DNA of 33,148 nucleotides from an uncultured Gammaproteobacteria bacterium (GCA_964637465.1 CAZWTE010000002.1:1-33148), one strand, 5' to 3'; positions 11,349 to 33,148 are shown, numbered from the stretch's first letter. The notes: generated by a model from the sequence alone, not told the origin. Made by a program: numbers and translations.

Positions 11349-11352
11349 AGGT

Positions 11353-12639
11353 TTAAAATCTGACTAAAACAGAATTTTTGTGAGCCGGCAGTTGCTCTAC
11401 TTCTGCAATAGTTCCGATTGCTTCTTTAATTTCGAGTAATCCGTTTTTGGTACATTTTTGGACTTGCATCCACTTGCCAAAAGCCTCTATCCCTAAAGGC
11501 GGGTGCATTTTGGCTGTGCCGCCCGTTGGCAAGACATGATTTGCTCCGGTGGCATAATCACCGCTTGATTTGGTTGTATAATCACCCAGGAAAACAGAAC
11601 CGGCATTAGTAATCTTGTTAACTAATTGCTCAGGTTTTTTTGTCATGATTTCCAAGTGCTCGGAAGCATACCGGTTAGCAAATTCAACTGCTTCGTCTAG
11701 TGAACCAACAATGGCAAATAAGCCATATTTTTCTAAAGATGTTTTAGCTCTTTCTTGAGTAGCCAGTTTTGGTAATTGTTTAGTAATCTCTTTGATTGTT
11801 TCTTCCGCCAGCAGTTTTGATGTGGTTAACAGGATGCAAGCGGAATCTGGGCCGTGTTCAGCGTCTGCTAATAAATCTGCTGCAATGAATTTGGGGTTGG
11901 CTGTGTCGTCCGCAATAATCAATACTTCAGAAGGTCCGGCCGGCATATCAATACTGATAGTTTGCAAGGCCAGTATTTTTGCGGCTGTGACATAAAGATT
12001 TCCTGCTCCAAAAATTTTATAGACACTGGGAATAGTGTTCGTACCATAAACCATGGCAGCAATTGCTTCTGCGCCACCAACTTTATAGATCTTTTTTATT
12101 CCTAACATATCAGCTGCCATTAAAGTTGGGGCAGGAGTTTTACCATCTGACTTGGCAGGGGAGCACATAATAATTTCTTTACAGCCAGCTACTTGGGCCG
12201 GGATCGCTGTCATTAAAACAGAAGAAGGGTAAACTGCTTTGCCACCCGGCACATAAATGCCCACTTTTTCAATTGGCCGCCAAACTCTCCAGACTGAAAT
12301 GCCTTTTTCGGTCTTCACAACAGTGTCTTTTTTGTTTTTCAGTTGGGCTTTTTGGACAGCGGTTATATTTTTGATCATTTGGTTTATTGATTTAATGAAC
12401 TTTCTATCTACATTCTGATAAGCCTTTTTGATTTCATCCCCGGTAACTTGTATTGAAAAAGGGGTCGGGCTGCCGGAAAACTTTTGGGAATATTTAATCA
12501 AAGCTTGATCGCCATTTTGCTTAACATCTTCCATGATTTTTTTAACCACCGGGATTACCTCCAGATAATTTTCGGAGGATCGTTTCATTATTTTTTTGTA
12601 ATCCTTTTTTGATAAGTCTTTTAAGTTAATGATTTTCAT
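11353..12639 (-). CDS. hisD: histidinol dehydrogenase
   Basis: [10 protein letters not shown]; AEHGPDS; SEHLEI; [15 protein letters not shown]. It forms an ATGA overlap with the hisG stop. Confidence 0.93.
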
Positions 12640-13283
12640 ATGATTATTTTTTCAAATTGCGCCACTAGCTTGCCTAATAGGATTTTTCTGCCATTTAACA
12701 ATGATTGTTTGTTTGAAATAAGTACTGTTTCAGAATTATATATTTTGGTAAGTATTCTTAAATCATTTACAGCAAGCGTGCGACCGGTTGAAGTAATATC
12801 AACTATGGCTTGTGCTATACCTAAGGCAGGAGCAATTTCAACAGATCCGCCTATGCGGGTAATCTTCACGGTAATACGGTTTTCTTTAAAGAAATTTTTT
12901 GTGGATTTTGGGTAGGTTGTAGCGATAGTTTTATTTTCTAAATCACTTAATTTTGTAATTTTTGATTCTTTTGGAACTGCTAGAACCAGTGAGCAAAACC
13001 CATATTTTAGATTGAGCAGCTTTTTTACTTTTGGCTTTTTTTCATTAAGCATATTCTGACCCAAAATGCCCAAATCAACCACGCCGGAGGCAACATAACC
13101 AGGAATGTCGTTGTTGCGGACGTAAAGAATTTCCAGGGGGAAATTTCGGCATAGGGAAAACAGCCTTTGTTTATAGCTTTCAAACTCCAGGCCGGATTTG
13201 CGCAAAAATTCCAGCGTTTCTTCGGTCAAACGTCCTTCTTTTTGAATTGCCAATTTTAAATTTTTAATACTTAAACTTGTCAT
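12636..13283 (-). CDS. hisG: ATP phosphoribosyltransferase, short form (about 215 aa, no C-terminal regulatory domain)
   Basis: LKLAIQKEGRL...DIPGYVASGVVDLGILG...DITSTGRTL. I placed the start at ATG 13283, which follows GAAAGGAAGG; the track start at 13331 lies inside the terminator hairpin. Confidence 0.88.
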   Translation of the reverse strand: MTSLSIKNLKLAIQKEGRLTEETLEFLRKSGLEFESYKQRLFSLCRNFPLEILYVRNNDIPGYVASGVVDLGILGQNMLNEKKPKVKKLLNLKYGFCSLVLAVPKESKITKLSDLENKTIATTYPKSTKNFFKENRITVKITRIGGSVEIAPALGIAQAIVDITSTGRTLAVNDLRILTKIYNSETVLISNKQSLLNGRKILLGKLVAQFEKIII

Positions 13284-13295
13284 ACCTTCCTTTCT

Positions 13296-13632
13296 AAGCC
13301 AACAAAAAACCTTCCGTTCTTTGCCCACCACAAAACGTGATGAACAAGGAACGGAAGGTTCAAAAAAAGGACCCTTCGACTTAGCTCAGGGCTATAGCCT
13401 CCCGCGGTCCCATCCTTTGTTCCATGTACCGTTACTGGTACGTGGCTCTTAGTGGCGACTTTGGTTTTCCAACATCGTCTGTTTCATTTTACGGTTAAAC
13501 TTCCGGCAAGTATTTGGCTTGCAGCCATGAACCAGAATAAATTCGGTTCATGGTCCTGAAGTGAAACTTTGTTTCTACTTCATGGACTCCTGGATCGTGA
13601 CTCCAGTGAAACGCTTTTGAATATTTAGTTGT
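13296..13632 (-). promoter_or_regulatory. candidate T-box riboswitch leader specific for tRNA-His, controlling the his operon
   Basis: T-box core AAAGGAUGGGACCGCG (13420-13403) matches the consensus AGGGUGGNACCGCG at all but one position. Helix A1 is GAACAAAGGA (13422-13413) paired with UCCUUGUUC (13350-13342). The 7-nt bulge is UGGGACC (13412-13406). Helix A2 is GCGGGAGG (13405-13398) paired with CCUUCCGU (13358-13351). The 3' strand of the antiterminator is the 5' strand of the terminator. The first leader hairpin displays CAC in its loop (13599-13597). Confidence 0.65.
13301..13360 (-). terminator. intrinsic terminator (attenuator) immediately upstream of the hisG RBS
   Basis: Minus strand reads AACCUUCCGUUC CUUGUU CAUCAC GUUUU GUGGUG GGCAAA GAACGGAAGGUU, a roughly 23-bp near-continuous hairpin at 13360-13308. 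It is followed by UUUUUGUU. Confidence 0.75.
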
Positions 13633-14876: not shown

Positions 14877-15639
14877 GGGTTGCCCCAGCACCATTCGGTG
14901 CGGGGTAAACTGATTTGGTTGAAACTTGGGCTGAAGGAGTAGCAATCTTTTTAGGTTTTAAAATTGCACCTTGGGGTATGATATAAACAAAGCCGGCATC
15001 AAAAATACTATTTTTATCCTTATTTCCAGTCAAGATTACAAAATCATTCAGTTTGACTTTAGTTTGGGCAGGTAAATAAACAGCCACATTTTTAAATTCA
15101 TGATCTTTTAGAGTGGTTAATTGGTCAGAGACAGAAATAACTTGGCCCCAGAGGAAGGTTTTGGGCGGTAGTTTGGCAGGTGGCAGCAAGACAATTTTTT
15201 TAGCCGTTAATACCCCTGTCTCATCACTGTCACCTAAGGCAGCTATATAGTCTTCTTCGGCAACAGTTTTTAAAGAAACTTTTTGCTTTGATTTAATTTT
15301 TGTTTCAAAAACAGTGTCCTGATTTATGTTGACTATCTTGGGTCCTGACCCAGCCGCTAAAGTAATTGTAGTATCGGATTTTGATTTAATTTGTCCGGCA
15401 TAAGCTTTGTCTTTAAGCTTGCGGTTTACCTCCTGTTTTAACTTAGCAGCTTTGGAAGCGATCTCCTTTTTTAGCTCCTCAAGCTTAGCTTTGATATCGG
15501 CGGAGGGAGTGGATTCTGTTGCAGCAGCAGAAGTTAAAAGTAAAAAGTTAAAAGTTAAAAGTGCAATTAAAAAGTTAAAAGTTTTGAATTTTAAATTGAA
15601 TTTTTGAATTTTGAATTTTGATTTTTGACTTTTTATCAT
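14857..15639 (-). CDS. secreted/exported hypothetical protein (signal peptide, coiled-coil segment)
   Basis: The K/F-rich n-region and hydrophobic core (FLIALLTFNFLLLTSAAA) are followed by a KLEELKKEIASKAAKLKQE coil. The N-terminal roughly 45 aa are encoded by AT-rich oligo-repeats. The start forms an ATGA overlap with the stop of the upstream gene (15636-16070). Confidence 0.6.
   Translation of the reverse strand: MIKSQKSKFKIQKFNLKFKTFNFLIALLTFNFLLLTSAAATESTPSADIKAKLEELKKEIASKAAKLKQEVNRKLKDKAYAGQIKSKSDTTITLAAGSGPKIVNINQDTVFETKIKSKQKVSLKTVAEEDYIAALGDSDETGVLTAKKIVLLPPAKLPPKTFLWGQVISVSDQLTTLKDHEFKNVAVYLPAQTKVKLNDFVILTGNKDKNSIFDAGFVYIIPQGAILKPKKIATPSAQVSTKSVYPAPNGAGATPRPTSL
15531..15632. repeat. 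AT-rich tandem oligo-repeats (AAGTTAAAAGT units, then TTTTGAAT units)
   Basis: The sequence reads aagttaaaagtaaaaagttaaaagttaaaagtg...gttaaaagttttgaattttaaattgaatttttgaattttgaattttgattttt. The first 20 nt are 19/20 identical to 21281-21300 inside pepN. Confidence 0.85.
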
Positions 15640-18195: not shown

Positions 18196-18229
18196 AAAAT
18201 CACCCTTACTTATTTCTTTCGTTATTTTG

Positions 18230-18312
18230 TGCCGGAGGAGGGATTTGAACCCTCACGGCCTTGCGACCAATAGTTTTTGAGACTATCCTGTATACCGTTC
18301 CAGCACCCCGGC
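18230..18312 (-). tRNA. tRNA-Leu (anticodon CAA), type II with long variable arm, CCA not encoded
   Basis: Minus strand: acceptor stem GCCGGGG/CTCCGGC (one G-U pair) and discriminator A. Anticodon stem ATAGT/ACTAT with loop CTCAAAA. Variable arm GGTCGCAAGGCC. T arm GAGGG-TTCAAAT-CCCTC. Confidence 0.9.
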
Positions 18313-19884: not shown

Positions 19885-22443
19885 ATGAAAAATAAAATTA
19901 GGTTACCCTCTCATGTTAAGCCTGAGCGTTATAAGATCATGCTCAAGCCGGATTTGAATGAGTTTACTTTTACCGGGGAAGAAACAATTTACCTGACCTT
20001 AGATAAGCCCGCCAAAGAAATTACCCTGCATGCTGCTGAGTTGGAAATAGATTCTGCAGAATTTATCCACGGCAACAAAGAGGTCTGGGCTGGAAAAATC
20101 AGTTATGATACTAAAGCGGAAACTGCCACTTTTACTTTTCCAAAAATAATCCAAAAAGGCAAAGGCCAATTAAAGTTAGTTTTCAGGGGTATTTTAAATG
20201 ATAAGATGCGGGGTTTTTACCGATCCCGGTATGAAGTAAATGGCAAATCAAAGTATTTGGCCACCACCCAATTTGAATCAACAGATGCCAGAAGGGCTTT
20301 TCCTTGTTTTGACGAGCCCTCACAAAAAGCCATCTTTGATGTAACCCTGATGGTGCCGGCCGGCACCACAGCCATCTCAAACACTGTGGAATCCCAGGTT
20401 TTGGAGCATGACGCAGGCTTCCAGATAGTGGAATTTGCCCCCACCCCGAAAATGTCCACTTATCTTTTAGCCTTTATTATAGGTGAATTTGAATATATAG
20501 AAGCCCCGCTTCGCCAAGGTTTCGCGGGGCAAGGGAAAAGGATGGTAAGAGTTTTTACTACGTCGGGGAAAAAAGAACAAGCCAGATTTGCTTTAGATGT
20601 TGCCATAAAATGTATGGATTTTTATGAAAAATATTTTGGAATTAAGTATCCATTGCCAATAATGGATATGATTGCTATCCCGGACTTCGCGGCCGGGGCC
20701 ATGGAAAATTGGGGAGCGGTCACTTACCGGGAATCAACACTGTTAATTGATGAAGCCAAATCCTCTTCCGCCAACAAACAATGGGTGGCTTTGGTGATTG
20801 CCCATGAATTGGCCCACCAGTGGTTTGGCAATCTGGTCACTATGGAATGGTGGACCCACCTTTGGCTAAATGAAGGTTTTGCCTCATTTATTGAATATCT
20901 GGCAATAGATCATATTTTCCCCCAGTGGGATATCTGGACTCAATTTGTGGCTACTGAAACGGGAGATGCATACCAGCTGGATTCCTTAAAAAACACCCAC
21001 CCGATTGAAGTGGAAGTCAAACACCCGGCTGAGATTTCCGAGATTTTTGACAAGGTTAGTTATGCCAAAGGGGCGGCGGTTTTACGGATGCTCTGGAAAT
21101 ATTTAGGGGAAAAGGATTTTCAAAAAGGGCTGCAATATTATTTGAAAAAGCATGCCTATTCCAATGCCACGACTGAAGATTTATGGATAGCTTTAGAACA
21201 AGTATCAGGCAAGCCGGTCAAAGCAGTGATGAAAAATTGGACATCTAAGGCGGGACACCCGGTAATAAGTGTAAAGTGTAAAGTTAAAAGTGAAAAGTTA
21301 GAATTAACGCAAAGCAGGTTTTTCTCCAGCCCAATTTCCAAAAAGCAGACTACAGACCGGACAATCTGGAATATTCCGGTCAGAATTGGCCAGGAGCAGT
21401 TCTTAATGGATAAGAAGAATATCAGCATTCCTGATACCGGAGAAAAGTTAAATACCGGTGAGTCCAGTTTTGCGCGGGTTGACTATCCGCATGAGTATCT
21501 GAAAAAACTGGAAGAAGAAATTAAAAATGGGAAACTATCAGCACCGGACCGGCTTGGTTTAATCAGAGACTCTTTTTCTCTGGCTGAGTCAGGACAAAGC
21601 CCGGCTACTTTAGTCCTGGAACTGGTTCAAAGTTACAAAGGCGAAGAGGACTATACGGTTTGGGCGGAGATTACTTCCCGTTTGGCGCAACTTAATTCTC
21701 TTCTGGCATACGGGCCTTATTACCAGGATTTTCAAAATTACGGTAGGGAAATTTATGCCGGTATTGTTAAAAAGCTAGGTTGGGAGAAGAAAAAGGGAGA
21801 AAAACATACAGATTCGCTGCTTCGTGGTTTAGCTCTAAATATGCTGGGTGGTTTTGGGGATCAAGAAACTATTAAGAGGGCGCAAGAATTATTCGGTAAA
21901 AAGGCAGACCCGGATTTGAAGGGAGTTGTTTATAATTTAGTGGCAGAAAATGGTGGAAGCAAAGAATTCAAGACATTAATAAGGATGTACAAAGAGGAAG
22001 ACAACCAGCAGGAAAAAGACCGGATTGGCCGCAGCTTAGGCAAGTTTAAGGACAAAACCTTACTTTCACAAACTTTGGATTTTTCCATTTCCCAACATGT
22101 CAGGTACCAAAACAGTTTGCAAATTATCGCTTCGGTTTGGGGCAACCCGGAAGGCAGATATTTGGCCTGGGAATTTGTGAAAGCTAACTGGGAATTACTT
22201 AAGGAAAGATACGCCGGCGGACATTATTTTATTAGAGTTTTTGCTCCGGCCGGGGAGTTTATCAAAATTACAGATGCCAAAGACATTGAAAAGTTTACCA
22301 GGAAAAATCCGGTTCCTGAAGCCCAAAGAACCATCGCCCAGGTTTTAGAACAAATCTATTCCAATGCCGAGTGGCTAAAACGGGATAAAGTAAAGATTCA
22401 AAAGTTCCTAAATAATGCAGCTAAAAGGTCCAAAAACCCCTAG
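19885..22443 (+). CDS. pepN: M1-family aminopeptidase N
   Basis: GAMENWG exopeptidase motif and HELAHQWFGN...WLNEGFA zincin motif. The C-terminal domain is ERAP1-like and helical. Confidence 0.92.
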   Translation: MKNKIRLPSHVKPERYKIMLKPDLNEFTFTGEETIYLTLDKPAKEITLHAAELEIDSAEFIHGNKEVWAGKISYDTKAETATFTFPKIIQKGKGQLKLVFRGILNDKMRGFYRSRYEVNGKSKYLATTQFESTDARRAFPCFDEPSQKAIFDVTLMVPAGTTAISNTVESQVLEHDAGFQIVEFAPTPKMSTYLLAFIIGEFEYIEAPLRQGFAGQGKRMVRVFTTSGKKEQARFALDVAIKCMDFYEKYFGIKYPLPIMDMIAIPDFAAGAMENWGAVTYRESTLLIDEAKSSSANKQWVALVIAHELAHQWFGNLVTMEWWTHLWLNEGFASFIEYLAIDHIFPQWDIWTQFVATETGDAYQLDSLKNTHPIEVEVKHPAEISEIFDKVSYAKGAAVLRMLWKYLGEKDFQKGLQYYLKKHAYSNATTEDLWIALEQVSGKPVKAVMKNWTSKAGHPVISVKCKVKSEKLELTQSRFFSSPISKKQTTDRTIWNIPVRIGQEQFLMDKKNISIPDTGEKLNTGESSFARVDYPHEYLKKLEEEIKNGKLSAPDRLGLIRDSFSLAESGQSPATLVLELVQSYKGEEDYTVWAEITSRLAQLNSLLAYGPYYQDFQNYGREIYAGIVKKLGWEKKKGEKHTDSLLRGLALNMLGGFGDQETIKRAQELFGKKADPDLKGVVYNLVAENGGSKEFKTLIRMYKEEDNQQEKDRIGRSLGKFKDKTLLSQTLDFSISQHVRYQNSLQIIASVWGNPEGRYLAWEFVKANWELLKERYAGGHYFIRVFAPAGEFIKITDAKDIEKFTRKNPVPEAQRTIAQVLEQIYSNAEWLKRDKVKIQKFLNNAAKRSKNP
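20503..20530. repeat. GC-rich hairpin (7-bp stem GCCCCGC/GCGGGGC, 14-nt loop) in-frame inside pepN
   Basis: GAAGCCCCGCTTCGCCAAGGTTTCGCGGGGCAAGG encodes EAPLRQGFAGQG between FEYI and KRMVRVFT. Confidence 0.7.
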
Positions 22444-22518: not shown

Positions 22519-23082
22519 ATGGCTTTAAATGTCACGGATTTAAGAAACGGGACTTTCTTTAAAGAAGGCAAGGATATTTTGCTGGTTTTGAATTACGAGC
22601 ATGTTAAAACAGGCAGGGGTTCCGGCAATATTAAGGTTAAAGTCCGCAATATTAGGAGCGGGGCAGTGACGGAAAAATCCTTTATTACGGGAGCCAGAGT
22701 AAATGAGGCTGATGTCAATAAAGTCAAAGGCCAATTCCTTTATCGGGACGGGGAAACTTTTAACTTTATGGATCCGATTTCTTTTGAACAATTTACTATT
22801 CCTGCCAATGTCATAGGTGACCAAGCTAAATTCTTAAAAGATGGTTTGGATGTGATTTTAATTGTATCTGAAGGTGAAGCTTTAGGGTTGGAGCTGCCAA
22901 TGAGCTTAGTGTATACCATTACCGAAACAGGTCCGGAAGAAAAAGGCAATACTGTATCTAATGTTTTCAAGGAAGCAGTTTTAGATAATGGTTTGGTAGT
23001 GAAAGTCCCCATGTTTATGAAAGTAGGAGAGAAAGTAAAGGTGGATACCAGGTCGGGAGAATATATTGAAAGAGTAAAATAA
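22519..23082 (+). CDS. efp: elongation factor P
   Basis: LRNGTFF...HVKTGRGSGNIKVKVRNIRSG...ETGPEEKG, with the three-domain EF-P layout. The tip of the beta3-beta4 loop is Arg33. Confidence 0.92.
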   Translation: MALNVTDLRNGTFFKEGKDILLVLNYEHVKTGRGSGNIKVKVRNIRSGAVTEKSFITGARVNEADVNKVKGQFLYRDGETFNFMDPISFEQFTIPANVIGDQAKFLKDGLDVILIVSEGEALGLELPMSLVYTITETGPEEKGNTVSNVFKEAVLDNGLVVKVPMFMKVGEKVKVDTRSGEYIERVK

Positions 23083-23113
23083 TCTCAAAACGCAAATCGT
23101 AAAACTCAAAACT
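23082..23113. repeat. 32-nt dispersed repeat, copy B (30/32 identical to 5041-5072), left arm of an imperfect palindrome extending to about 23150
   Basis: ATCTCAAAACGCAAATCGTAAAACTCAAAACT. The right arm TTTGACATTTGAGTTTTGACATTTGAGAT is partly complementary to it. Confidence 0.9.
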
Positions 23114-23129
23114 TATGTAGATTTGACAT

Positions 23130-23158
23130 TTGAGTTTTGACATTTGAGATATTATAGT
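23130..23158 (+). promoter_or_regulatory. candidate promoter for galU (TTGAGT-17 nt-TATAGT), 8 nt from the ATG
   Basis: TTGAGT (23130-23135), 17-nt spacer, TATAGT (23153-23158). This is the same architecture as the rpmE candidate promoter, and both are built from the same repeat family. Confidence 0.35.
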
Positions 23159-23166
23159 TAGAAGAC

Positions 23167-24054
23167 ATGAGTAAAAAGATTACAAAAGCCCTCATTCCTG
23201 CTGCCGGCTTCGGGACCCGTTTCCTTCCCCAAACCAAGGCCATGCCCAAAGAAATGCTGCCGATTGTGGACAAGCCGGTAATCCAGTATGTGGTGGAAGA
23301 GATAGTAAATTCCGGCATAAACGATATTGTGATTGTGACCGGGGCAACAAAGCGGGCGATTGAAGACCATTTTGATGTACCGAATGAGGATTTAGTACAG
23401 AATTTGATTAATGGCAACAAGATTGAAGCTTTGGCAAAAATTAAGCATATCTCAGAAATGGCAAATTTTATCTATGTCCGCCAGAAAGGCCCTTATGGTA
23501 ATGGGACGCCGGTACTTTCAGGGGAATCGGTGATAGGAAATGAACCGTTTGCAGTTTTGTGGGGAGATGAATTCATTTACTCCGAACCGCCAAGGCTTGC
23601 CCAGATGCTCAGGGTTCATGAAAAATACGGCGGTATTGTGATTTCCGGAGTCAGAATTGAAAAAAAAGCAGACCTGCGGCGTTATGGGATAGCTGATTTA
23701 GAACCTGTGGAAGGGAATGTTTTTAAAATCAAGGCAATTGTGGAAAAACCAGACCCTGATAAGGCTCCTTCTGATATTGCCACGCATGGAGCCTATATCC
23801 TACCTCCTGAAATTTTTGGGGCACTGAAAAGTTTAGAGTCCGGACATGGCGGAGAGATTTGGCTGGTTGATGCCATTAACTTTTTGAAGGATCAGGGTAT
23901 TCCCGTATATGCTGTGGAAATAGAAAATGGCAAATATTACGATACGGGCAATAAACTTGAATATATGAAAACCGTAGTTGATCTGGCTCGTCAGCATCCG
24001 GAAATAGGAAAAGGGTTTAGTGAATATTTAAAAGAGTTAGTGAATAACCCTTAA
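23167..24054 (+). CDS. galU: UTP--glucose-1-phosphate uridylyltransferase
   Basis: KALIPAAGFGTRFLPQTKAMPKEMLPIVDKPVIQYVVEE is a canonical GalU N-terminus; VLWGDE is also present. Confidence 0.92.
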   Translation: MSKKITKALIPAAGFGTRFLPQTKAMPKEMLPIVDKPVIQYVVEEIVNSGINDIVIVTGATKRAIEDHFDVPNEDLVQNLINGNKIEALAKIKHISEMANFIYVRQKGPYGNGTPVLSGESVIGNEPFAVLWGDEFIYSEPPRLAQMLRVHEKYGGIVISGVRIEKKADLRRYGIADLEPVEGNVFKIKAIVEKPDPDKAPSDIATHGAYILPPEIFGALKSLESGHGGEIWLVDAINFLKDQGIPVYAVEIENGKYYDTGNKLEYMKTVVDLARQHPEIGKGFSEYLKELVNNP

Positions 24055-24553: not shown

Positions 24554-25444
24554 ATGTTTCGGGTACTTTTTTCTATTGGCAACTTATCTGTTTCTTCGTT
24601 TGGAGTTTTTTTGGCATTGGGATTTTTACTTGGCATATTTTTGATCTGGAGACTGGCCCGGGCTTGGGATTTAGATGAAGAGAGAGTTTTGGATTTGGTA
24701 TTGCTGGCCTTCTTGGGAGGGCTGGCAGGGGCGCGGGTTTATTTCGCGATAGAGAATTGGCAATATTTTGCCGTAAATCCGCTGAATTTGATTTTAATCA
24801 ACAAAATCCCCGGGTTTTCTTTTTGGGGCGGGTTTTTGGGCGGGTGGCTGACTCTATATCTGCTTGCCAGGCGGAAACGCCTGGACTTTTGGCAGCTGGC
24901 TGATATTGCCTCCATAGGACTGCTGGGAGGATTGGTATTATCCGGGGTGGGGTGTTTTTTAGGCAGTTGTAATACCGGCATCGTCTCAAAAGCTTTTTTT
25001 GCTGTCACCCAGGTGGGAGCTTTGGGTAAAAGATGGCCTGTCCAGATAATTGAAGCATTACTTTTGACGGTAGTTTTATCAAAAATTTGGTCACAAGCCA
25101 CCCGCTTTCATCAGAGAGGAAAAATAGTCAGCATGACGCTTATTTTAGTAGGCGGCACAAAGCTGATACTTGAGCCTTTAAAACAAAACCATTCAGAAAT
25201 CATTTTTTCCGGCATGTTTGTTATTTTAGGTATTGTTATTTTTTATCGGGTGACAAAACAAAATCCGGTTACACATCTTAAAGGATGGGGAATATTTTTG
25301 ATTAAGCTGTTAAACGATTCAAAGACCAGGACTTTGGTAGTGCAAAAAGTTAGTCAATACTGGTATAATCAGATAACCGGCATTGGCTGGAAGCTAAGGA
25401 ATTTGAAAAAATTACTAAGGAGATCCAATGTTAAGCTTTCCTAA
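24554..25444 (+). CDS. lgt: prolipoprotein diacylglyceryl transferase-like
   Basis: SFGVFLALGFLLG; GGLAGARVYF; WGGFLGGWL; RWPVQIIEAL (compare the Lgt block PtQLYE). I preferred the ATG at 24554 over the TTG at 24518. Confidence 0.7.
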   Translation: MFRVLFSIGNLSVSSFGVFLALGFLLGIFLIWRLARAWDLDEERVLDLVLLAFLGGLAGARVYFAIENWQYFAVNPLNLILINKIPGFSFWGGFLGGWLTLYLLARRKRLDFWQLADIASIGLLGGLVLSGVGCFLGSCNTGIVSKAFFAVTQVGALGKRWPVQIIEALLLTVVLSKIWSQATRFHQRGKIVSMTLILVGGTKLILEPLKQNHSEIIFSGMFVILGIVIFYRVTKQNPVTHLKGWGIFLIKLLNDSKTRTLVVQKVSQYWYNQITGIGWKLRNLKKLLRRSNVKLS

Positions 25445-25787
25445 AAAAACCCTGGAATTTATCAAAAGATACCTGCTAAGACAACAAAAAGAGGTAGAAA
25501 TGAACCTAAAAGGAGTTAGTGCGGACGATCCGGCTAAGAGTCCGGCTTTGGCAGAAAGTTCTGAACCGGGCACAGATTCCTATATTGCCGATACCCACAC
25601 CAGGACTGTAGTTTTAGAGCAGCAACTTAAAAGCGCAAAAACCAGTATTGCAACAGCCCTGGTAAAAATTAAAAAAGGCACTTATGGCAAGTGTGAAAAG
25701 TGTAACAACCAAATTCAGGTAGGCAGGCTTCTAGCCATGCCCACTGCCCAATATTGTGTGTCCTGCTCCAAGCAAAAGACTAAATAA
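25428..25787 (+). CDS. DksA/TraR-family C4 zinc-finger protein
   Basis: CEKCNNQI...AQYCVSCS four-Cys finger at the C-terminus, preceded by a coiled-coil-like region. The last roughly 64 nt contain repeat copy 1. Confidence 0.75.
   Translation: MLSFPKKTLEFIKRYLLRQQKEVEMNLKGVSADDPAKSPALAESSEPGTDSYIADTHTRTVVLEQQLKSAKTSIATALVKIKKGTYGKCEKCNNQIQVGRLLAMPTAQYCVSCSKQKTK
25724..25771 (+). repeat. 48-bp direct repeat, copy 1 (inside the 3' end of the DksA/TraR gene)
   Basis: CAGGCTTCTAGCCATGCCCACTGCCCAATATTGtGTGTCCTGCTCCAA is 47/48 identical to 32064-32111. Confidence 0.95.
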
Positions 25788-25862
25788 TTACCTCACGGGA
25801 TAAGGGTGTGGTATATTTCTATATGACTCAAACGGAGTTTTGAGTATTAATATTTCATCTTT

Positions 25863-26912
25863 ATGAATAAGCATATAATCAATCTTTCACGGAATGAAAA
25901 TCTTTACGGGTTCCCGAATAAAATATTACAAAAAACAGATAGGATATTAAATAGATTAGGACTAATTACTTATCGGAAAGAGAGTAACCTAAGAGAGAAA
26001 CTCAGTAAAAAACACAAAGTGAAAATAGACAATATTTTCATAGAAATGGGTGCTGAAGGTGCTTTACGTGAGATATTTGTTAATTTATCCCGTCTGACTG
26101 ATAGTAAAATATTATTAAGCGATATTTTGTGGGATTATTATAAGGAATTAGCAAAGCAGCAAAATTTGCTTACTGTTTTTTACCGGATCAAAAAAAATAA
26201 AAAAAAGAATACTTATGAATTTGATTTAGAAGAGATAAATACCGCAATTAAACAGGAAAAACCTACAGCCATAATAATAAATAATCCCCATAATCCTGCT
26301 GGCTATCAGATACCGGAAAAGAAGTTAGGCAGACTACTAAGAAAAATTAACAAAAAAATAATAGTTATTTTTGACGAAACTTATTTTGGATTCCGGAATA
26401 GTTATGATAATAGAGGTTTATTCATCAAACGATATCCTAATTTGATTGTCGTAAGAAGTTTTTCCAAACTTTACGCCGTAGCAGGTATTCGAATCGGTTA
26501 TTTGTTGATTGGAGATTATGCCCGCAAGAAACTAAATATCTATGCCCCTTACCTGGGGCATAATTTTATTGCAGAAGAGATTGCAAGTATGCTTTTGGAT
26601 GAAACAAAGTTCTATCAATCGATTAGAGAAGAAATTAATAGGCAGCGTGATGTTTTATACCATTATTTTAACCGCTTGAAGGGTTTTCAAGCCTATAAAT
26701 CAGTAGCAAATTTCTTATTAATTCGGATCAATTCAGAATTATATTCTCACATTGGATATAAACAATATATGGAACAGAATGGGTATATATTCAAATTATA
26801 TACAGAGGACAGATTGAAGAATTGTATAAGAATAACTATTCCTTTAAATGAACATATCCAGAAAATTATTAGACTGACTAACTCCTTTATAACAGGAAAA
26901 AACAATGAGTAA
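25863..26912 (+). CDS. PLP-dependent aminotransferase, class I/II (HisC-like family)
   Basis: LSRNENLYG; INNPHNPAG; RSFSKLYAVAGIRIGY (PLP Lys). The gene is very AT-rich and Lys/Asn-rich, and contains KKNKKKN. Confidence 0.8.
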   Translation: MNKHIINLSRNENLYGFPNKILQKTDRILNRLGLITYRKESNLREKLSKKHKVKIDNIFIEMGAEGALREIFVNLSRLTDSKILLSDILWDYYKELAKQQNLLTVFYRIKKNKKKNTYEFDLEEINTAIKQEKPTAIIINNPHNPAGYQIPEKKLGRLLRKINKKIIVIFDETYFGFRNSYDNRGLFIKRYPNLIVVRSFSKLYAVAGIRIGYLLIGDYARKKLNIYAPYLGHNFIAEEIASMLLDETKFYQSIREEINRQRDVLYHYFNRLKGFQAYKSVANFLLIRINSELYSHIGYKQYMEQNGYIFKLYTEDRLKNCIRITIPLNEHIQKIIRLTNSFITGKNNE

Positions 26913-27915
26913 AATTTTAGTCATGGGTGGTACTCAGTTTGTCGGTAAGGCTGTTGTTAAATATTTTATACAAAAAAACCATTCTGTAGACATCTTTACC
27001 AGAGGGAATATTGCAGTTGATTATGTTGGGATAAATCAACATATTAAGGGAGACAGAAAAAATAAGGATTTTGTAAGAAAAGCCTTAGCTGATAAAAAAT
27101 ATGATTTTGTAATAGATATATCTGCGTATACGGTAGAGGATACGGCCATTTTACTTCCTAATCTCAATAAAAGCCATCTGAAAAAATATATTTTCATCAG
27201 TTCCGGAGCAGTTTATAACAAGCCTAAATCTTCTATTCAGCCGGTGTTATTTAAAGAAAACTCTCCTGCGAAACTAATTCCTCATCCTGCTTGGGGGAAT
27301 TACGGTTTAGAAAAGAAAAAGGCTGAAAATTATATAAGGGAACAATCTAAAAAGAGGGCAATTAATTTTATTATTATTCGTCCGTCCTATATCTATGGAA
27401 TAGGGAATAATTTATTAAGAGAGCAATTTTATTTTTCCCGGATTGAATCAGGACAGGCAATATTTATCCCGGCAAATACCAGAACACATATCCAATTTAT
27501 TAATATTGATGATTTATATATTTTCATAGAACAATGCTTAATAAATCCAAAAGCGCGAAATCAAGTTTATAATGTGGCTCACCCCCAAATATTAACCTGG
27601 CGGGTTTTTGTAAATTTTATCATAAAAGCCTGTGGAAAAAAAACAAGAGTTTATGAAATATCCAATAAAATAGAACCAAATGCGCGGTTATATTCGCCTT
27701 TCCGCGATGAAAATATGGCATTAGATATTTCAAAATTACTAAAACATGGCTTTTCTTCGCCGGGGGTTGATCTTGAAGCAGGTTTAAATATAGCATACAC
27801 TTATTTTAAATTTACAAATGAAGGAAAAAATAAAAGATTTGTGGGATTTAAGGATCCAAAAATGACTAGACTGGATGAGATATCTGTTTTGATGAAAAAA
27901 CAAGATGATTTTTGA
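26905..27915 (+). CDS. NAD(P)-dependent epimerase/dehydratase (extended SDR)
   Basis: ILVMGGTQFVGKAV Rossmann motif, FISSGAVY, and a YGLEKKKAE YxxxK catalytic motif. It overlaps the upstream gene by 8 nt (ATGAGTAA). Confidence 0.8.
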   Translation: MSKILVMGGTQFVGKAVVKYFIQKNHSVDIFTRGNIAVDYVGINQHIKGDRKNKDFVRKALADKKYDFVIDISAYTVEDTAILLPNLNKSHLKKYIFISSGAVYNKPKSSIQPVLFKENSPAKLIPHPAWGNYGLEKKKAENYIREQSKKRAINFIIIRPSYIYGIGNNLLREQFYFSRIESGQAIFIPANTRTHIQFINIDDLYIFIEQCLINPKARNQVYNVAHPQILTWRVFVNFIIKACGKKTRVYEISNKIEPNARLYSPFRDENMALDISKLLKHGFSSPGVDLEAGLNIAYTYFKFTNEGKNKRFVGFKDPKMTRLDEISVLMKKQDDF

Positions 27916-28891
27916 GAGATTAAACAATAATTCAAGCATTGCCGAAATTACAGAGGCATTACTCGTAAGAGGAAGTGAACAGCAAAAGTTGTTTGAGAAA
28001 GCAAGCGAATTTCGCGGTGACAAGGTATATATCAGGGCAGCGATCGAACCCAGTAATATTTGCCGGCAAAATTGTACTTACTGCGGCATGAGAAGAGACA
28101 ACAAAGAACTCGCACGGTTCCGTATTACCGATACACCATTGGATAAATTGGTAGATGAGGCTATTTCTATACCTGAAGTTGATTTTGTGCATATTGCCCT
28201 TGGTGAAGATATCAAATTCCCCTTTAATCAAGTAGCTAATTTAATCAGAAGGGTGAATAGCGCCGGAAAAACAATCTCTCTTGTATTAGGAGAATTGCCC
28301 GAGGCTGTTTATTCAATGTTATATGATGCCGCGGAAGGCAACCCAGCCCGATTTACAATAAATTTGGAGACAACAGATAACGAATTATTCGAAAAGATTA
28401 AGCCAGGACACCGTTTCGCAAAAAGGCTTGGTAAGCTGGAAGCGATAGAAAGAATAGGTTTTCAACCTTGTTCCGGCATAATAGCAGGGTTACCGGACCA
28501 GACTTATGAAATAGTGGCAAAAGATTTATTATTTCTTGTAAACTATCACAGGCTTGTTGATATCAGCGCCAGTACGTTTATCCCTAGTCCCAGTTCTCCG
28601 CTTGAGGGTTGTTTTCGTGGTGACGATAATCTTACTTTAAATTTCTTAAGCCTGATTCGTTTAATTACAAAAAATCCATCGCTTACTATCAGCGCATCGA
28701 GTTCTCTTGCTGAAGACGCAAGGCAGACAGCTTTGCAGTTCTTTGCCAACTTGGTTACTATACATCTGTTGCCCAAGCAATACCAAGGTTTATATCTGAT
28801 ATATAACGGCGAAAACCGCAGCTTCCAACAGATTGATGCTATTCGGAAGCGCGTTTCGGATTTAGGCCTGAGGTTTAATAAGTCAGCATAA
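27905..28891 (+). CDS. radical SAM enzyme of the HydE/PylB/BioB clade
   Basis: IEPSNICRQNCTYCGMRRDN (CxxxCxxC). Downstream blocks are LGELPE, ETTDNELF, GLPDQT, DLLFL and FIPSPSSPL, in the order I recall for HydE/PylB-type enzymes. It overlaps the upstream gene by 11 nt. Confidence 0.8.
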   Translation: MIFERLNNNSSIAEITEALLVRGSEQQKLFEKASEFRGDKVYIRAAIEPSNICRQNCTYCGMRRDNKELARFRITDTPLDKLVDEAISIPEVDFVHIALGEDIKFPFNQVANLIRRVNSAGKTISLVLGELPEAVYSMLYDAAEGNPARFTINLETTDNELFEKIKPGHRFAKRLGKLEAIERIGFQPCSGIIAGLPDQTYEIVAKDLLFLVNYHRLVDISASTFIPSPSSPLEGCFRGDDNLTLNFLSLIRLITKNPSLTISASSSLAEDARQTALQFFANLVTIHLLPKQYQGLYLIYNGENRSFQQIDAIRKRVSDLGLRFNKSA

Positions 28892-28892
28892 T

Positions 28893-29996
28893 ATGTTTAA
28901 TATATTAGTACTAAATTCTGATAAATCCACGGGAATAAATTTTACTAAATCACTTCAGCTTGCGAAAAAAGAATATAATAGAGATTATTACATTATTGGT
29001 ACTTCAACCGATCTTATTCGTTCGAAGCTTTGCAATAACGATCAGACCATTTTGCTTAATCAGAGATTTAAATCTCCATTAGAAGTTATGAAATACATTG
29101 AGAAAAAATTACAGAAGAAAATTAATTTAGTGTATGAAACAAAGAGCGCGGAACGCATGTTGCAAATTAATTCTTACAGAGAAAGACTACCGGTTTTTAT
29201 CCCTTCTGCCAAATCAATTAGAATATTTGAAAATAAATTTAGAACTTATTACATCTTAAAAAAGAATGGATTTCCCGTACCGGAAACCCGGAAACCGAAA
29301 AATCGGCGGGAAGTAAAAAGAATTATATCCGAAATAGGACATCCAAATGTGTGGATTAGGCGCTCGGCTGGTCAAGGAGGTAAAGGGTCATTTATATCAA
29401 ATGATGCGGATTATATTGCTGATATAATTGATCGGGATAACAACGGTTGGGGAAATTATATTATTTCGGAAAGATTGCCTAAACAAGATCTTTCGAAGGG
29501 ATGGGGGCCTCATTTAAAAGATGATTTATTACCAGGGGAAATGGTTACTTGGATTGCTTTGTATGACAACGGAGATTTGGTTGCTTCTCAAACCCGGAAG
29601 AGATTGTATTGGGAACATTCTGATTTAACACCATCTGGAGTAACCGGATATTCCGGAGCCAATATGACAATTAAACTTGATAGCCTACACGATTTATGTG
29701 ATAAGATGATACGTTCGATCGATAATAAGCCGCAGGGTGCTATGGGGGCAGATTTTGTTGTTGATAGCGATGGTGCTCCAAAGTTAACCGAAATTCAATC
29801 CAGCAGGTTTTTTACCTCAACTTATCCGCTCACATTATTAGGTTTAAATTTTCCTGATTTATATATCAATTGTTTTAGAAAAAAAAGCATTCAAAAGGGA
29901 ATCATAAATCCATGTAAACCAGGTATGATTTATATTCAGAGATTTGGGGCTGATAGTGTTATGGTTGATAGAGATACTTTAAAAGACGGCATTTAG
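28893..29996 (+). CDS. ATP-grasp ligase
   Basis: KFRTYYILKKNGFPVPET...WIRRSAGQGGKGSF...GAMGADFVVDSDGAPKLTEIQSSRF is an ATP-grasp fold pattern. The start is 1 nt after the radical SAM stop. Confidence 0.75.
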   Translation: MFNILVLNSDKSTGINFTKSLQLAKKEYNRDYYIIGTSTDLIRSKLCNNDQTILLNQRFKSPLEVMKYIEKKLQKKINLVYETKSAERMLQINSYRERLPVFIPSAKSIRIFENKFRTYYILKKNGFPVPETRKPKNRREVKRIISEIGHPNVWIRRSAGQGGKGSFISNDADYIADIIDRDNNGWGNYIISERLPKQDLSKGWGPHLKDDLLPGEMVTWIALYDNGDLVASQTRKRLYWEHSDLTPSGVTGYSGANMTIKLDSLHDLCDKMIRSIDNKPQGAMGADFVVDSDGAPKLTEIQSSRFFTSTYPLTLLGLNFPDLYINCFRKKSIQKGIINPCKPGMIYIQRFGADSVMVDRDTLKDGI

Positions 29997-30068
29997 AGTT
30001 CACTTAAGAGATTAAAATATTTCGAAGTATTGACTTTAGTTTGGTATTATGCTAAAAACCAACACACT

Positions 30069-31979
30069 ATGAGTTTGGTTAAGGCGGAAGGAGAACCTGT
30101 AGGTATTACCTCTCCGGGGGACTTAGAGAAATTATCTAAGTTAGTCAGGTATTATATTTTAACTTCAACATCTGCGGCCGGTTCCGGACATCCTACATCC
30201 TCTTTATCCGCAGTAGAGCTTACATCAACACTCCTTTTTGGCGGTTTTTTCAGATTTGATCTGGGTAATAAAGATAATCCGCATAACGACCGTTTGATTT
30301 TTTCCAAAGGTCACGCTTCGCCGCTTTTTTACTCTTTGTTTGCGGCAGCCGGTACAATTTCTGAAGATGAACTTTTAACAATGCGTAAATTTGGCAGCCG
30401 TTTAGAAGGTCATCCAACTCTGGAGTTTCCTTATACAGAGGTACCTACCGGTTCTTTAGGTCAGGGTTTATCAGTAGGTTTGGGAATGGCGTTAAACAGT
30501 AAATATATTGATAAAACCGGATTTAGGACTTTTGTGCTTATGGGTGATTCTGAAGTGGCAGAAGGTTCTGTGTGGGAAGCAATGGGGGTTGCCTCTTTTT
30601 ATAAACTGGATAATTTAGTCGGCATTTTAGATGTTAACAGGTTGGGTCAAAGTAGGGAGACTATGCTGGGTCATGATATTAAAACTTATGAAAAAAGAAT
30701 TTCTTCTTTTGGTTGGGAAGCAGTAGTTTTAGAAGATGGCCATGATATAGGACAAATAATTGCTGCCTATGATAGAACCTTAGCCTGTAGGGACAAACCG
30801 ATTATGATTATTGCCAGAACCTTAAAAGGTAAGGGCATATCGTTTTTAGAAGATAAAGAAAACTGGCACGGAAAAGCCCTTTCTAAAGAAAAATTGAAAT
30901 TAGCGCTTGGAGAACTTGGGTATATTGATAGAGATCTGAGAGGCAGTATTACACCACCAGAAGAAATTAAGCATCAAGCAACAGAATTAAAAAGCGATCT
31001 GCAAGTTTCACCAACTCATCAAGTTGAGTCAACTACGGACTACTTAATAGGTAATTTACTTACGACAAGGAATGCATTTGGTAATGCGCTAGTAAGGCTT
31101 TTCCCAAGATACCCTAATATGGTTGTCATGGATGGGGAAACTTCAAATTCCACATTTTCTGAATTATTTGCCAAAGCTTATCCACAGAATTATTTTGAGA
31201 TGTTTATTGCGGAACAAAATATGGCAGGAGCTGCCCTAGGTTTGGCAAAACAGGGTAAAATACCCTTTATTACCGCGTTTGCAGCTTTTTTTAGCCGTGC
31301 TTTTGATCAGATTAGGATGGCGCAATACGCTGATGCCAATATTAAATATTGCGGCTCTCATGCTGGAGTTTCAATAGGTGAAGACGGATCATCTCAAATG
31401 GGACTGGAGGATATAGCAATGTTCCGTTCACTCCTAGGAAGTGTTGTATTATATCCTTCCGATGCTGTCTCGGCTGAAAAGTTAACCGAAGAGGCCATCA
31501 AACACCGCGGCATCGTTTATATCCGAACGACCAGAAAAGATACACCTGTTATTTACCGTGCAGACGAAGAATTCCCAATAGGGGGCAGCAAGATTTTACG
31601 CGAAAGTCCGCTTGATAAAGTTACTGTAATCGGTGCAGGTGTTACACTACATGAAGCGCTAAAAGCTTATGATTTGTGTAAGGACAAAGGTATCTCAATC
31701 AGAGTAATTGATTTATATTCAATAAGTCCACTGGATGTAAAAACATTAAGGCGGTCTGCTGAAGACACAAAAGCCGTAATTACTGTTGAAGATCATCATA
31801 AGGCCGGAGGGTTGGGGGAAGCTGTTGCGGCGACATTATCGGGTACAGGTAAAAGCGTAAATATTATGGCTGTAGAAAAAATACCGCACAGCGGCAAACC
31901 GGATGAATTGCTTGAATATGAAGGGATTAATGCTGAGGCTATTTATTCGAAAGTAACACAATTGCTATCTTCAAAATAA
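30069..31979 (+). CDS. tkt: transketolase (single-chain, about 636 aa)
   Basis: SGHPTSSLSAVEL; DRLIFSKGHASPLFYS; LEGHP; GSLGQGLSVGLG; MGDSEVAEGSVWEA. The C-terminal Pyr and TKC domains are present. I preferred the ATG at 30069 over the TTG at 30030. Confidence 0.88.
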   Translation: MSLVKAEGEPVGITSPGDLEKLSKLVRYYILTSTSAAGSGHPTSSLSAVELTSTLLFGGFFRFDLGNKDNPHNDRLIFSKGHASPLFYSLFAAAGTISEDELLTMRKFGSRLEGHPTLEFPYTEVPTGSLGQGLSVGLGMALNSKYIDKTGFRTFVLMGDSEVAEGSVWEAMGVASFYKLDNLVGILDVNRLGQSRETMLGHDIKTYEKRISSFGWEAVVLEDGHDIGQIIAAYDRTLACRDKPIMIIARTLKGKGISFLEDKENWHGKALSKEKLKLALGELGYIDRDLRGSITPPEEIKHQATELKSDLQVSPTHQVESTTDYLIGNLLTTRNAFGNALVRLFPRYPNMVVMDGETSNSTFSELFAKAYPQNYFEMFIAEQNMAGAALGLAKQGKIPFITAFAAFFSRAFDQIRMAQYADANIKYCGSHAGVSIGEDGSSQMGLEDIAMFRSLLGSVVLYPSDAVSAEKLTEEAIKHRGIVYIRTTRKDTPVIYRADEEFPIGGSKILRESPLDKVTVIGAGVTLHEALKAYDLCKDKGISIRVIDLYSISPLDVKTLRRSAEDTKAVITVEDHHKAGGLGEAVAATLSGTGKSVNIMAVEKIPHSGKPDELLEYEGINAEAIYSKVTQLLSSK

Positions 31980-32063
31980 CAATATTTTTAATACCCTGTT
32001 TTGTACTGATAACTTTAGTAAAACACTATTTGTGAATTGCTCAAATTACTCTGGTTTGTTGGA

Positions 32064-32111
32064 CAGGCTTCTAGCCATGCCCACTGCCCAATATTGCGTG
32101 TCCTGCTCCAA
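32064..32111 (+). repeat. 48-bp direct repeat, copy 2
   Basis: 47/48 identical to 25724-25771, with a single T/C difference at 25754 versus 32094. Confidence 0.95.
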
Positions 32112-32136
32112 AAAAACTTCCAAAAAATCCAGATAA
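32065..32136 (+). pseudogene. displaced 3'-end remnant of a DksA/TraR zinc-finger gene
   Basis: In the frame of copy 1 it reads RLLAMPTAQYCVSCSKKTSKKSR-stop (TAA 32134-32136). There is no start codon or N-terminal portion upstream. Confidence 0.7.
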
Positions 32137-32140
32137 CATT

Positions 32141-32974
32141 CTAAACTTTTTGTGCAGTAAGTATGTAATATCCCGCTTTACCGTCCCTAAGAAGGTTTTG
32201 TAGACCAGTAAGCAATGCCTCGATGTCTTGAGGTGGATCTTTTGCACCTATATTTTGACTATCAGAAGGAAAATAATGTTGTGGTGCGATTACATTTTCG
32301 GTTACATCTCTTGGATTTATACAAGAGAAGTCATTTAAGAATAAGAGAATGATTAATTCTTGGATATGAATGATATTGGGAATATACATATGTGCTTTGA
32401 GTCCTTCGATGATGTCAGTTTCTTCTTTTGTTAATTTATCTGTATGCATTAGTATATCTGCTATTGTGATTCTGCCTTTGGATTTTAAAGTTCTATTTGA
32501 TTCTTGTATTAAACCTTTCTTGTTTTGAGAGTGGATAAAACTTTCACAGAAAATAATTCTATCGAAAATTTCACTCCGAAAAGCAATATGTTCGTAGTCT
32601 TGGACAGAGAATATAGGATAAGGAGATCTTTCGTGTTCATTATATTGATTTGCGAGATGAATATTATTTATTAATATATCTATTCCATATACTTTTGCCG
32701 CTGGTTCGATGCTGTTAATCTCGAATGCTAAAATTCCTACGCCACACCCCGCATCGAGGATGGATTGTTCAGGTTTAATTTCGCTAAGTTCTACGATTTT
32801 CTGAGACATTTGTAAAGCTGCATTAGAACTGCTTACAGGATTTTGCCAGTCTTGATAGCCGATATGCATAGCATAAAGACCTTTCTTTTTTAGATCAGGT
32901 GACCACCGCAAGAAAAGAGGTTCTGTTTCCCGATAGAAGTTTTCTACTCCGTGATACTTTTCATTTTTGATCAT
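32141..32974 (-). CDS. class I SAM-dependent methyltransferase
   Basis: ILDAGCGVGILAFE (motif I), with downstream acidic and hydrophobic motifs (VYGIDI, DRIIFCESF). It converges on tkt. Confidence 0.75.
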   Translation of the reverse strand: MIKNEKYHGVENFYRETEPLFLRWSPDLKKKGLYAMHIGYQDWQNPVSSSNAALQMSQKIVELSEIKPEQSILDAGCGVGILAFEINSIEPAAKVYGIDILINNIHLANQYNEHERSPYPIFSVQDYEHIAFRSEIFDRIIFCESFIHSQNKKGLIQESNRTLKSKGRITIADILMHTDKLTKEETDIIEGLKAHMYIPNIIHIQELIILLFLNDFSCINPRDVTENVIAPQHYFPSDSQNIGAKDPPQDIEALLTGLQNLLRDGKAGYYILTAQKV

Positions 32975-33148
32975 AATTAAAATAGTATTTTAGCATAATG
33001 ATTTCTGTTATGAGCTCAAATTAGTATATTGCTTTGATAATTAATTCGATATAGAATCGATATAGAATAAGAAAATCTTAGTTAATTCTTGAGAGACTAG
33101 CTATTAAATGTCAAGAACCGAAATGAATACAACTAAAAGTCCTGAAAA

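Follow-up and report, generated by a model that had tools for sequence, protein, structure and literature searches.

A 6276-bp segment of five co-oriented genes appears to have been inserted at the 3' end of a DksA/TraR-family zinc-finger gene in the 33,148-nt stretch of DNA analysed here (GCA_964637465.1, CAZWTE010000002.1:1-33148; hereafter the window), leaving the gene complete and a displaced copy of its 3' end on the far side of the segment. The locus looks like ordinary recombination-driven gene capture and not like a new mobile element. The explanation that we modestly favour is homology-anchored capture of DNA from a related donor, via general recombination as opposed to cassette-encoded or site-specific recombination. 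The features on which this reading is built are as follows (coordinates are those of the window; GC3 is the GC content at third codon positions, and SAM is S-adenosylmethionine).

25428..25787, plus strand: live DksA/TraR-family C4 zinc-finger gene, 119 aa (Pfam zf-dskA_traR, E=3.4e-10; NCBIfam DksA_like, E=4.8e-17)
25724..25771, plus strand: repeat copy 1 (attL-like), codons R100-K116 of the live DksA gene, second CxxC included
25772..25787, plus strand: putative incoming gene tail, which completes K-Q-K-T-K-stop and is unlike the remnant tail beyond 25771
25788..32063, plus strand: cargo segment, 6276 bp, five co-oriented genes that overlap or nearly abut
32064..32111, plus strand: repeat copy 2 (attR-like), 47/48 match to copy 1
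32065..32136, plus strand: displaced, presumably native DksA 3' end, which reads RLLAMPTAQYCVSCSKKTSKKSR-stop and is 5'-truncated at codon 100
32141..32974, minus strand: convergent class I SAM methyltransferase gene (Pfam Methyltransf_31/11/25; GC3 0.273)

The duplicated gene end and its native copy

The 48-bp direct repeat described in an earlier note on this DNA was confirmed in its coordinates and its same-strand orientation. Its sole mismatch, T/C at 25757/32097, is a synonymous third-position change (TGT/TGC). A search of the window allowing up to 3 mismatches recovered these two copies only, compared with 0 in 100 dinucleotide-preserving shuffles, and similarity drops abruptly outside both edges of the repeat. 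Copy 1 was said to encode the second CxxC of an intact gene, and indeed C110 and C113 lie within it, in a 119-aa open reading frame (ORF) with the C-terminal end CVSCSKQKTK-stop. Copy 2 was likewise found in frame, running to a stop codon at 32134-32136, and it lacks a gene body: upstream of 32064, neither DksA-like sequence nor a plus-strand ORF of at least 50 aa was present. The stop of this remnant is separated by 4 nt from that of the convergent methyltransferase gene.

The claimed absence of an integrase, a transposase and a tRNA at both junctions holds according to the Pfam/NCBIfam assignments and a tRNA scan. No integrase, transposase or resolvase gene was detected by Pfam/NCBIfam anywhere in the 33-kb window, in which all genes, including the five cargo genes, were non-recombinase. 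The single tRNA of the window, tRNA-Leu at 18229-18312, is 7 kb away from the site, and an Rfam scan of the window returned tRNA only and no other structured element. A promoter and terminator scan at the junctions gave nothing exceeding shuffle expectation, and no inverted repeats were found at the cargo ends.

The cargo segment is compositionally foreign. In the GC check that had been proposed for this interval, the cargo had a GC content of 0.360 compared with 0.404 elsewhere, and all other 6.3-kb segments of the window fell between 0.385 and 0.416. The proposed tetranucleotide comparison gave a distance of 0.0215 for the cargo versus 0.0130 +/- 0.0020 for 40 control segments, about 4 standard deviations higher. 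The GC3 of the five cargo genes was 0.25-0.37, compared with mostly 0.35-0.50 in core genes.

Of the 812 homologues of the DksA-like protein (70-84% identical; closest, 80-84%), most are from Candidatus Daviesbacteria of the candidate phyla radiation (CPR/Patescibacteria), to which those that carry a name belong; by these homologues, the genome carrying the locus is assigned to this lineage. Related loci were collected by DksA-alignment scans from one genome per species (49) and from metagenome contigs (80), which gave about 90 non-redundant loci with downstream sequence. The remnant tail at 32101-32129 is identical at 28 of 29 nt to the DksA tails of the nearest relatives, L005/L006, and TGC at the mismatch position is common to the remnant and these two loci. 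The closest homologues, P0003 and P0004, end in CSKKTSKKSIK, which is of the remnant type and not of the live type. The live tail together with the 75-nt spacer behind it matched nothing in the related loci, and K-Q-K-T-K aligns with natural DksA tails such as KKKTK of P0020. Because the remnant tail matches those of the relatives and is tightly spaced against the next, convergent gene, the remnant is taken to be the original end of the recipient gene. These comparisons indicate that the recipient's 3' end, from codon R100 to the stop, persists as a non-functional remnant beside its old convergent neighbour, and that the live tail (KQKTK-stop) arrived with the cargo. On the evidence, the live gene would be a hybrid of a native body and an incoming 3' tail. 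The proposal that the inserted DNA carried a replacement end is thus supported by the native-type tail in the remnant and the differing tail of the live gene.

Recurrent scars at one gene end

A sensitive search of each locus for a second copy of its own DksA end yielded four cases, namely the window (z=25), L029 (z=28), L039 (z=10; the same contig as L112 in the second collection) and L090 (z=7). Behind the live gene of L029 (9764-10123) come a promoter, a MazE/AbrB-type antitoxin gene, a PIN toxin gene and a 62-nt remnant (10850-10911, 87% identical) that extends from codon L102 through the stop; a GreA-like gene and a helix-turn-helix regulator gene lie past the remnant. In L079, which is from a different species, DksA is directly followed by the same GreA-like gene and regulator, and the L029 remnant aligns to the L079 DksA end at 84%. 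On this alignment and gene order, L079 is read as the empty-site equivalent of the L029 insertion. L090 carries the same toxin-antitoxin pair as L029 with a largely decayed remnant. In L039, an inverted PIN/antitoxin pair stands between the live gene and a remnant of at least 108 nt (79% identical), which starts near codon K80 and has lost one zinc-finger cysteine. Both the L029 and the L039 insert are approximately 0.75 kb long and contain an intact toxin-antitoxin pair only.

As judged from their sequences, the cases represent at least three independent events at one gene end: the window, L029 with L090, and L039. The three differ in cargo, orientation and truncation point (R100, L102 and approximately K80). 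Their repeats overlap in codons L102-S115, and the left boundaries of the repeats differ. No motif common to the ends of the three cargo types was found, and no recombinase gene was detected inside any of the three inserts. In addition, the repeat region shows no extra nucleotide conservation among 107 DksA orthologues, in which synonymous sites vary freely. The PIN toxin ORF of L029 stops at a TAG formed by the first bases of the remnant (TTAGCC, 10850-10853), which places the insertion junction against, or just within, the end of the toxin gene. The PIN homologue of L090 stops two codons before that of L029.

The differences between live end and remnant were counted over the three events. 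There were 31 nucleotide differences, distributed 8/2/21 over the codon positions, and the codon changes comprised 17 synonymous and 7 non-synonymous ones; tested against equal thirds, the chi-square by our own arithmetic is approximately 18 (p ~1e-4). The two copies differ at 7 positions in L029 and at 23 in L039, mostly at third codon positions and synonymously. This third-position bias indicates that both copies diverged mostly as functional gene ends in different lineages, and the incoming DNA would then have carried the 3' end of a related donor's DksA orthologue plus its downstream DNA. The codon pattern thus points to another, related Daviesbacteria lineage as the donor of a segment that entered downstream of the lgt-dksA core block. 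The incoming segment is predicted to have consisted of its own DksA 3' end, followed by a four-gene amino-acid-modifying cassette and a transketolase gene.

Two outcomes that the earlier note had named as contrary to an insertion were not observed. The arrangement is not common to all relatives, since about 90 related loci have no cargo beside DksA, and the repeat is not a dispersed element, being confined to DksA genes and their remnants in the window and 140 related loci. The cargo was searched for by tblastn in the first 55 loci and through clustering of the downstream ORFs in 86 loci; neither cargo genes nor the methyltransferase gene were found near DksA (within 10 kb in the first 55 loci, and no matching cluster among the 86). 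The region 3' of DksA is extremely variable, with the first four ORFs falling into approximately 140 clusters, and toxin-antitoxin pairs are frequent in it. Scans of viral contigs with a conserved DksA-end DNA pattern, a DksA alignment and an ATP-grasp alignment found nothing. Toxin-antitoxin pairs of several families recur within approximately 1.5 kb downstream of Daviesbacteria DksA, most of them without a detectable remnant. NTP_transf_2 plus HEPN pairs occur near DksA in L005/L006, L031, L033 and L115, a ribbon-helix-helix protein with a 146-aa partner in L095/L096, and PIN pairs in L029/L090 and L039.

Mechanism of insertion and competing explanations

Capture anchored in homology could have followed either of two routes. 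In homology-facilitated illegitimate recombination (HFIR), linear DNA taken up by transformation would be joined on the left side by a homologous crossover in lgt/dksA and on the right side by an illegitimate join at 32063/32064. A join inside the recipient dksA would leave the leftover 3' piece as a remnant; a join further downstream would leave no remnant, and this may be the usual outcome. Alternatively, a single (Campbell-type) crossover may have occurred between the 48-nt DksA homology and a circularised, partly degraded donor fragment. Either route would produce a complete gene and a 5'-truncated remnant, the length of which is set by where the break or join happens to fall. On both routes, truncation should vary, the cargo should be arbitrary, a recombinase should be missing and the donor should be a relative, and the observations agree on all four counts. 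They are not separable here, and taken together they are, on the whole, somewhat probable. Among the mechanisms considered in the earlier note, homologous capture therefore fits best, whereas a strict attL/attR site-specific reading is weakened by the variable truncation points, the differing cargo, the failure to find a recombinase and the lack of extra site conservation.

Events of both kinds are known from the laboratory. HFIR junctions typically contain 3-10 bp of microhomology (range, 0-10 bp), and single crossovers of partly degraded, recircularised DNA in Escherichia coli gave gene-end duplications of 109-950 bp (PMC3240628). In these events, homology on one side suffices for foreign DNA to be taken in beside a conserved gene, and the variable length of the duplications resembles that of the remnants of 48, 62 and 108 nt in the window, L029 and L039, respectively. 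In contrast to the present cases, which are read from natural CPR genomes, the laboratory events were selected in Streptococcus pneumoniae, Acinetobacter baylyi, Pseudomonas stutzeri and E. coli, and the surviving homologous tract here is only 48 nt.

Several points weigh against homology-anchored capture. The least comfortable fact is the abrupt mosaic, a 47/48 block beside an unalignable tail, which also fits an attachment (att) core; it may have come from heteroduplex repair or gene conversion over a short tract, or from hypervariable Lys-rich tails. A tract of 48 nt is short for a RecA-dependent crossover, and the match at the right junction is 4 of 5 nt (GTTGG versus GTAGG), a weak microhomology. 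Natural competence has been shown in cultivated Patescibacteria of the Saccharibacteria (PMC10633639) and not in Daviesbacteria. That one gene was hit three times independently within its last 40 codons could mean targeting. The expected donor arrangement, a KQKTK-ending DksA gene followed by the aminotransferase gene, was found neither in the 55 loci searched by tblastn nor in the 86 clustered loci, and the genes around P0020, whose tail is the most similar among the homologues, are different ones. A DksA gene directly convergent with the methyltransferase gene was not found via the methyltransferase homologues either. Close relatives are thinly sampled, the best DksA identity being 84%, and the recombinase screens of the related loci were crude, consisting of regular-expression searches and summaries of the top 25 families. 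The contexts of the ATP-grasp homologues of the cargo also contained no donor arrangement.

A site-specific recombinase acting in trans, encoded by the genome or by a helper and using the DksA 3' end as att, is unlikely as the cause. Such an enzyme would move recombinase-less cassettes bearing an att mimic, as in cis-mobilizable elements (CIMEs), integrative mobile elements exploiting Xer (IMEX) and the H47 island of E. coli. It would explain why three insertions fell within the same ~40 codons and left the gene intact each time, why the repeats of the three events overlap, and why the 48-nt identity block of the window is sharply bounded on both sides. Precedent exists in H47, a small biosynthetic island with imperfect direct repeats and no recombinase gene, the excision and integration of which were shown experimentally to be RecA-independent and to proceed via unidentified host functions (PMC3191183, PMC5426353). 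Unlike those of the window, however, the repeats of H47 do not form the end of a gene that was interrupted and restored, and the window locus is known from sequence alone. The differing left boundaries and the entry of the L029 junction into the last codons of the toxin gene speak against a trans-acting recombinase, as do the cassette ends, which have no common motif. The free variation of synonymous sites in the 107 orthologues implies that no common DNA site exists across the clade, and no viral contig with the site was found. No recombinase motif was found near DksA in the 140 loci (1.57 Mb) by the crude screen: the tyrosine-recombinase box II motif was absent, and the sole hit lay 7 kb upstream in L045 and may be a serine-recombinase motif. 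In Pfam and PHROG summaries of 68 representative downstream proteins (top 25 families), no clear recombinase adjoined DksA, and one representative was presumably an insertion sequence (IS) transposase. We regard as still less likely the more specific proposal that the DksA 3' end is a dedicated Daviesbacteria docking site for recombinase-less, gene-end-mimic cassettes moved by a host or helper recombinase. If true, it would be a CPR-specific cassette system with a logic like that of integrons or Xer exploiters, in which coding sequence serves as att.

It is improbable that the segment is a decayed integrative element, that is, a prophage or island inserted by its integrase at the DksA 3' end, from which the integrase and element genes were later deleted. 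The architecture is the same as that of e14/phage 21 in E. coli icd, in which insertion at the 3' end of a coding gene supplies a replacement end, the gene stays functional, and a 5'-truncated icd' remnant (163 bp) lies at the far side between attL/attR-like repeats (PMC6379469). A homologue of the cargo cassette (epimerase, radical SAM, ATP-grasp and aminotransferase genes) on a contig with Phage_integrase and tail genes also agrees with such an origin. However, e14 has its own integrase and a fixed att core, whereas the window insert is a metabolic operon in which no recombinase was found and the truncation points vary among the relatives. The locus therefore matches the e14/phage 21-icd architecture but fails that family's defining feature, an element-borne integrase. 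Decay would require three independent complete losses of recombination genes, and two of the inserts are only ~0.75-kb toxin-antitoxin pairs. Moreover, the window cargo is a compact operon that fills the interval without pseudogene debris, and the 47/48 identity and the intact frame of the remnant argue against great age.

An assembly or episome artefact, in which the chromosome would be an empty site and a 6.3-kb circle or a segment from another strain would have been joined through the 48-nt repeat, is very improbable. Logan contigs from four groundwater metagenome runs (X1-X4) bear out the sequence and cover both flanks, and X3 record 23 (31196-32093) spans the junction from the transketolase gene to the remnant without a mismatch. 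These contigs, built with k=31, end where the repeat is exact over 33 nt; they therefore cannot prove which flank joins which tail and fit the integrated and the empty-plus-circle states equally; no joint at the repeat was reported in them. On the other hand, the repeat is far below read length, and an assembler k above 35 would need real attL/attR k-mers. The depths of flanks and cargo are similar within runs (for example, 16.7, 13-14.5 and 13.5 in X3), and the same architecture occurs in L029 and L039 (=L112), which come from other species and were assembled independently.

The least probable origin is one in situ, in which the insertion duplicated the recipient's own 48 nt by a long target-site duplication or slippage and the live tail is a fortuitous read-through. 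The near-identity of the window copies would agree with this, and A-rich DNA readily encodes a Lys-rich tail. Against it stand the differences within L029 and L039, which do not resemble the decay of a non-functional duplicate, and the alignment of K-Q-K-T-K with the natural tail of P0020; duplications of 48, 62 and 108 nt suit no transposase, and neither a transposase nor terminal inverted repeats were found. A transposon or IS was rejected for the lack of these two features and of a short, fixed duplication. A tRNA-targeting island was likewise rejected. A dif/Xer site was dropped as well; no dif-like 28-mer was seen in the repeat and no turn of the GC skew at the site. In chromosomal integrons, small cassettes without a recombinase gene pile up at one chromosomal site, and these are often toxin-antitoxin pairs that have a promoter of their own. 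The present locus differs from them in that no intI, attI or attC-like imperfect palindromes are present and in that coding sequence of the target gene makes up the repeats. The integron cassette was rejected for want of an integrase gene in the window and of a shared or palindromic end motif.

The most fitting label for the locus is a naturally occurring footprint of homology-anchored capture in a plasticity hotspot; such events are known, and it is the lineage and the locus that are new. The structure of the scar itself would not surprise a specialist. It offers a natural example of an ultrasmall uncultivated CPR bacterium that would have gained a whole operon beside a conserved core gene, the incoming DNA having restored that gene. 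A donor from a related lineage would be consistent with gene transfer through uptake of DNA and its general recombination, in a group whose competence was demonstrated in culture only recently. Since the scar recurs at one gene, the boundary of lgt-dksA stands out as a hotspot of plasticity in Daviesbacteria, which may help to locate accessory genes and, should genetics become feasible, to select neutral insertion sites.

The cargo, its neighbours and other features of the window

The five genes of the cargo are as follows (PLP, pyridoxal phosphate; SDR, short-chain dehydrogenase/reductase).

25863..26912, plus strand: cargo gene 1, PLP aminotransferase class I/II, HisC/threonine-phosphate-decarboxylase-like (Pfam Aminotran_1_2, E=4.6e-39; PDB HisC, E=1.6e-23)
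26905..27915, plus strand: cargo gene 2, NAD-dependent epimerase/dehydratase-family (SDR) protein (Pfam Epimerase, E=2.9e-19; weak PDB match to UDP-glucose 4-epimerase)
27905..28891, plus strand: cargo gene 3, radical SAM protein of the HydE/PylB/BioB group (Pfam Radical_SAM, E=6e-14; PDB HydE, E=3.9e-44; PylB, E=5.5e-13)
28893..29996, plus strand: cargo gene 4, ATP-grasp ligase of a rare family (weak Pfam ATP-grasp matches)
30030..31979, plus strand: cargo gene 5, transketolase (NCBIfam NF004559, 833 bits versus a cut-off of 488; three Pfam transketolase domains)

For cargo gene 1, the scores of TIGR01141 and TIGR01140 were both below the cut-off, and a separate, genuine hisC is present in the window at 9813-11348. 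The scores of cargo gene 3 were likewise below the cut-off for both TIGR03956 HydE (137 bits) and PylB (83 bits). The ATP-grasp protein has 26 homologues among 5.8 billion proteins, with a best identity of 64%. In L141, a homologue is partnered by a radical SAM protein (radical SAM and ATP-grasp, 55% and 59% identity), and in L142 by an aminotransferase and an epimerase within a larger biosynthetic cluster. The phage-like contig of P0143 (ENA ERZ1426633) carries genes for an epimerase, a radical SAM protein, a P-loop kinase, an ATP-grasp protein, an APH-like kinase, an aminotransferase and a HAD protein, together with Phage_integrase, HU and tail-protein genes. The same ATP-grasp partners in three other contexts mark the first four cargo genes as a recurring, horizontally mobile functional module. 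With regard to the P0143 contig, a virus may carry this pathway.

The enzyme set, comprising a radical-SAM rearrangement enzyme, an ATP-grasp ligase, an NAD enzyme and a PLP enzyme, suggests that the product of the cargo is probably a small amino-acid-derived metabolite. The four-gene cassette presumably bears a loose resemblance to PylB/PylC/PylD chemistry. This rare radical-SAM/ATP-grasp/PLP/SDR cassette, seen also on the phage-like contig and in a biosynthetic cluster, is a candidate unknown small-molecule pathway. The gap between dksA and the cargo is 75 nt long and contains no terminator-like site; the cargo is therefore probably co-transcribed with lgt-dksA.

The methyltransferase gene is indicated by its position to be the original downstream neighbour of the DksA gene, yet to be accessory itself, and its GC3 of 0.273 suggests that it was probably an earlier acquisition. 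Its nearest homologues (up to 72% identity) reside in YcaO/nitroreductase/small-peptide clusters elsewhere and not beside DksA. Exact-sequence look-ups of the window's DksA and methyltransferase matched no record. In the methyltransferase relatives of L058, L059 and L060, the gene forms a divergent pair with an ORF of 56-61 aa and is accompanied by a YcaO protein and a nitroreductase-family protein, with an M16 peptidase in addition in L059 and L060. The methyltransferase/YcaO/nitroreductase set has the layout of a thiazole/oxazole-type cluster for a ribosomally synthesized and post-translationally modified peptide (RiPP). At the end of the window, a small ORF starts from 33106 (MSRTEMNTTKSPE…), in a position that matches the small-peptide ORF of these relatives (region 32141-33148).

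Upstream of the site, the gene order DnaB, PaaX-like, peptidase M1, EF-P, GalU, 147-aa protein, Lgt and DksA is common to the relatives. Further upstream, the minus strand at 7825-13331 encodes a histidine-biosynthesis row comprising HisG, histidinol dehydrogenase, a HisC-HAD phosphatase fusion, imidazoleglycerol-phosphate dehydratase, a glutamine amidotransferase and a HisA/F-type barrel protein. The row adjoins the histidyl-tRNA synthetase gene (6041-7255). CPR genomes seldom have operons for the synthesis of amino acids.

An imperfect palindromic intergenic element (…ATCTCAAAACGCAAATCGTAAAACTCAAAAC…GTTTTGACATTTGAGAT…) was found at 23076-23153 between the EF-P gene and galU, and a half-copy of it at 5035-5075, behind the L31 gene. 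Contig depth in the bin 23000-23338 was 90-446 in the four groundwater runs, compared with roughly 1-50 in other bins, and many loose contig ends lie at 23110-23150. The palindromic element is probably a multi-copy repeat in the groundwater community. Short A-rich tandem motifs (AAGTTAAAAGT-like) occur at 15531-15589, 21267-21312 and 4645-4676 and may be low-complexity or regulatory sequence. A 1-nt deletion at 24510 dominates contig depth in all four runs (36.7/48.3 up to 282.9/282.9), which suggests that more abundant related strains share the stretch just upstream of lgt.

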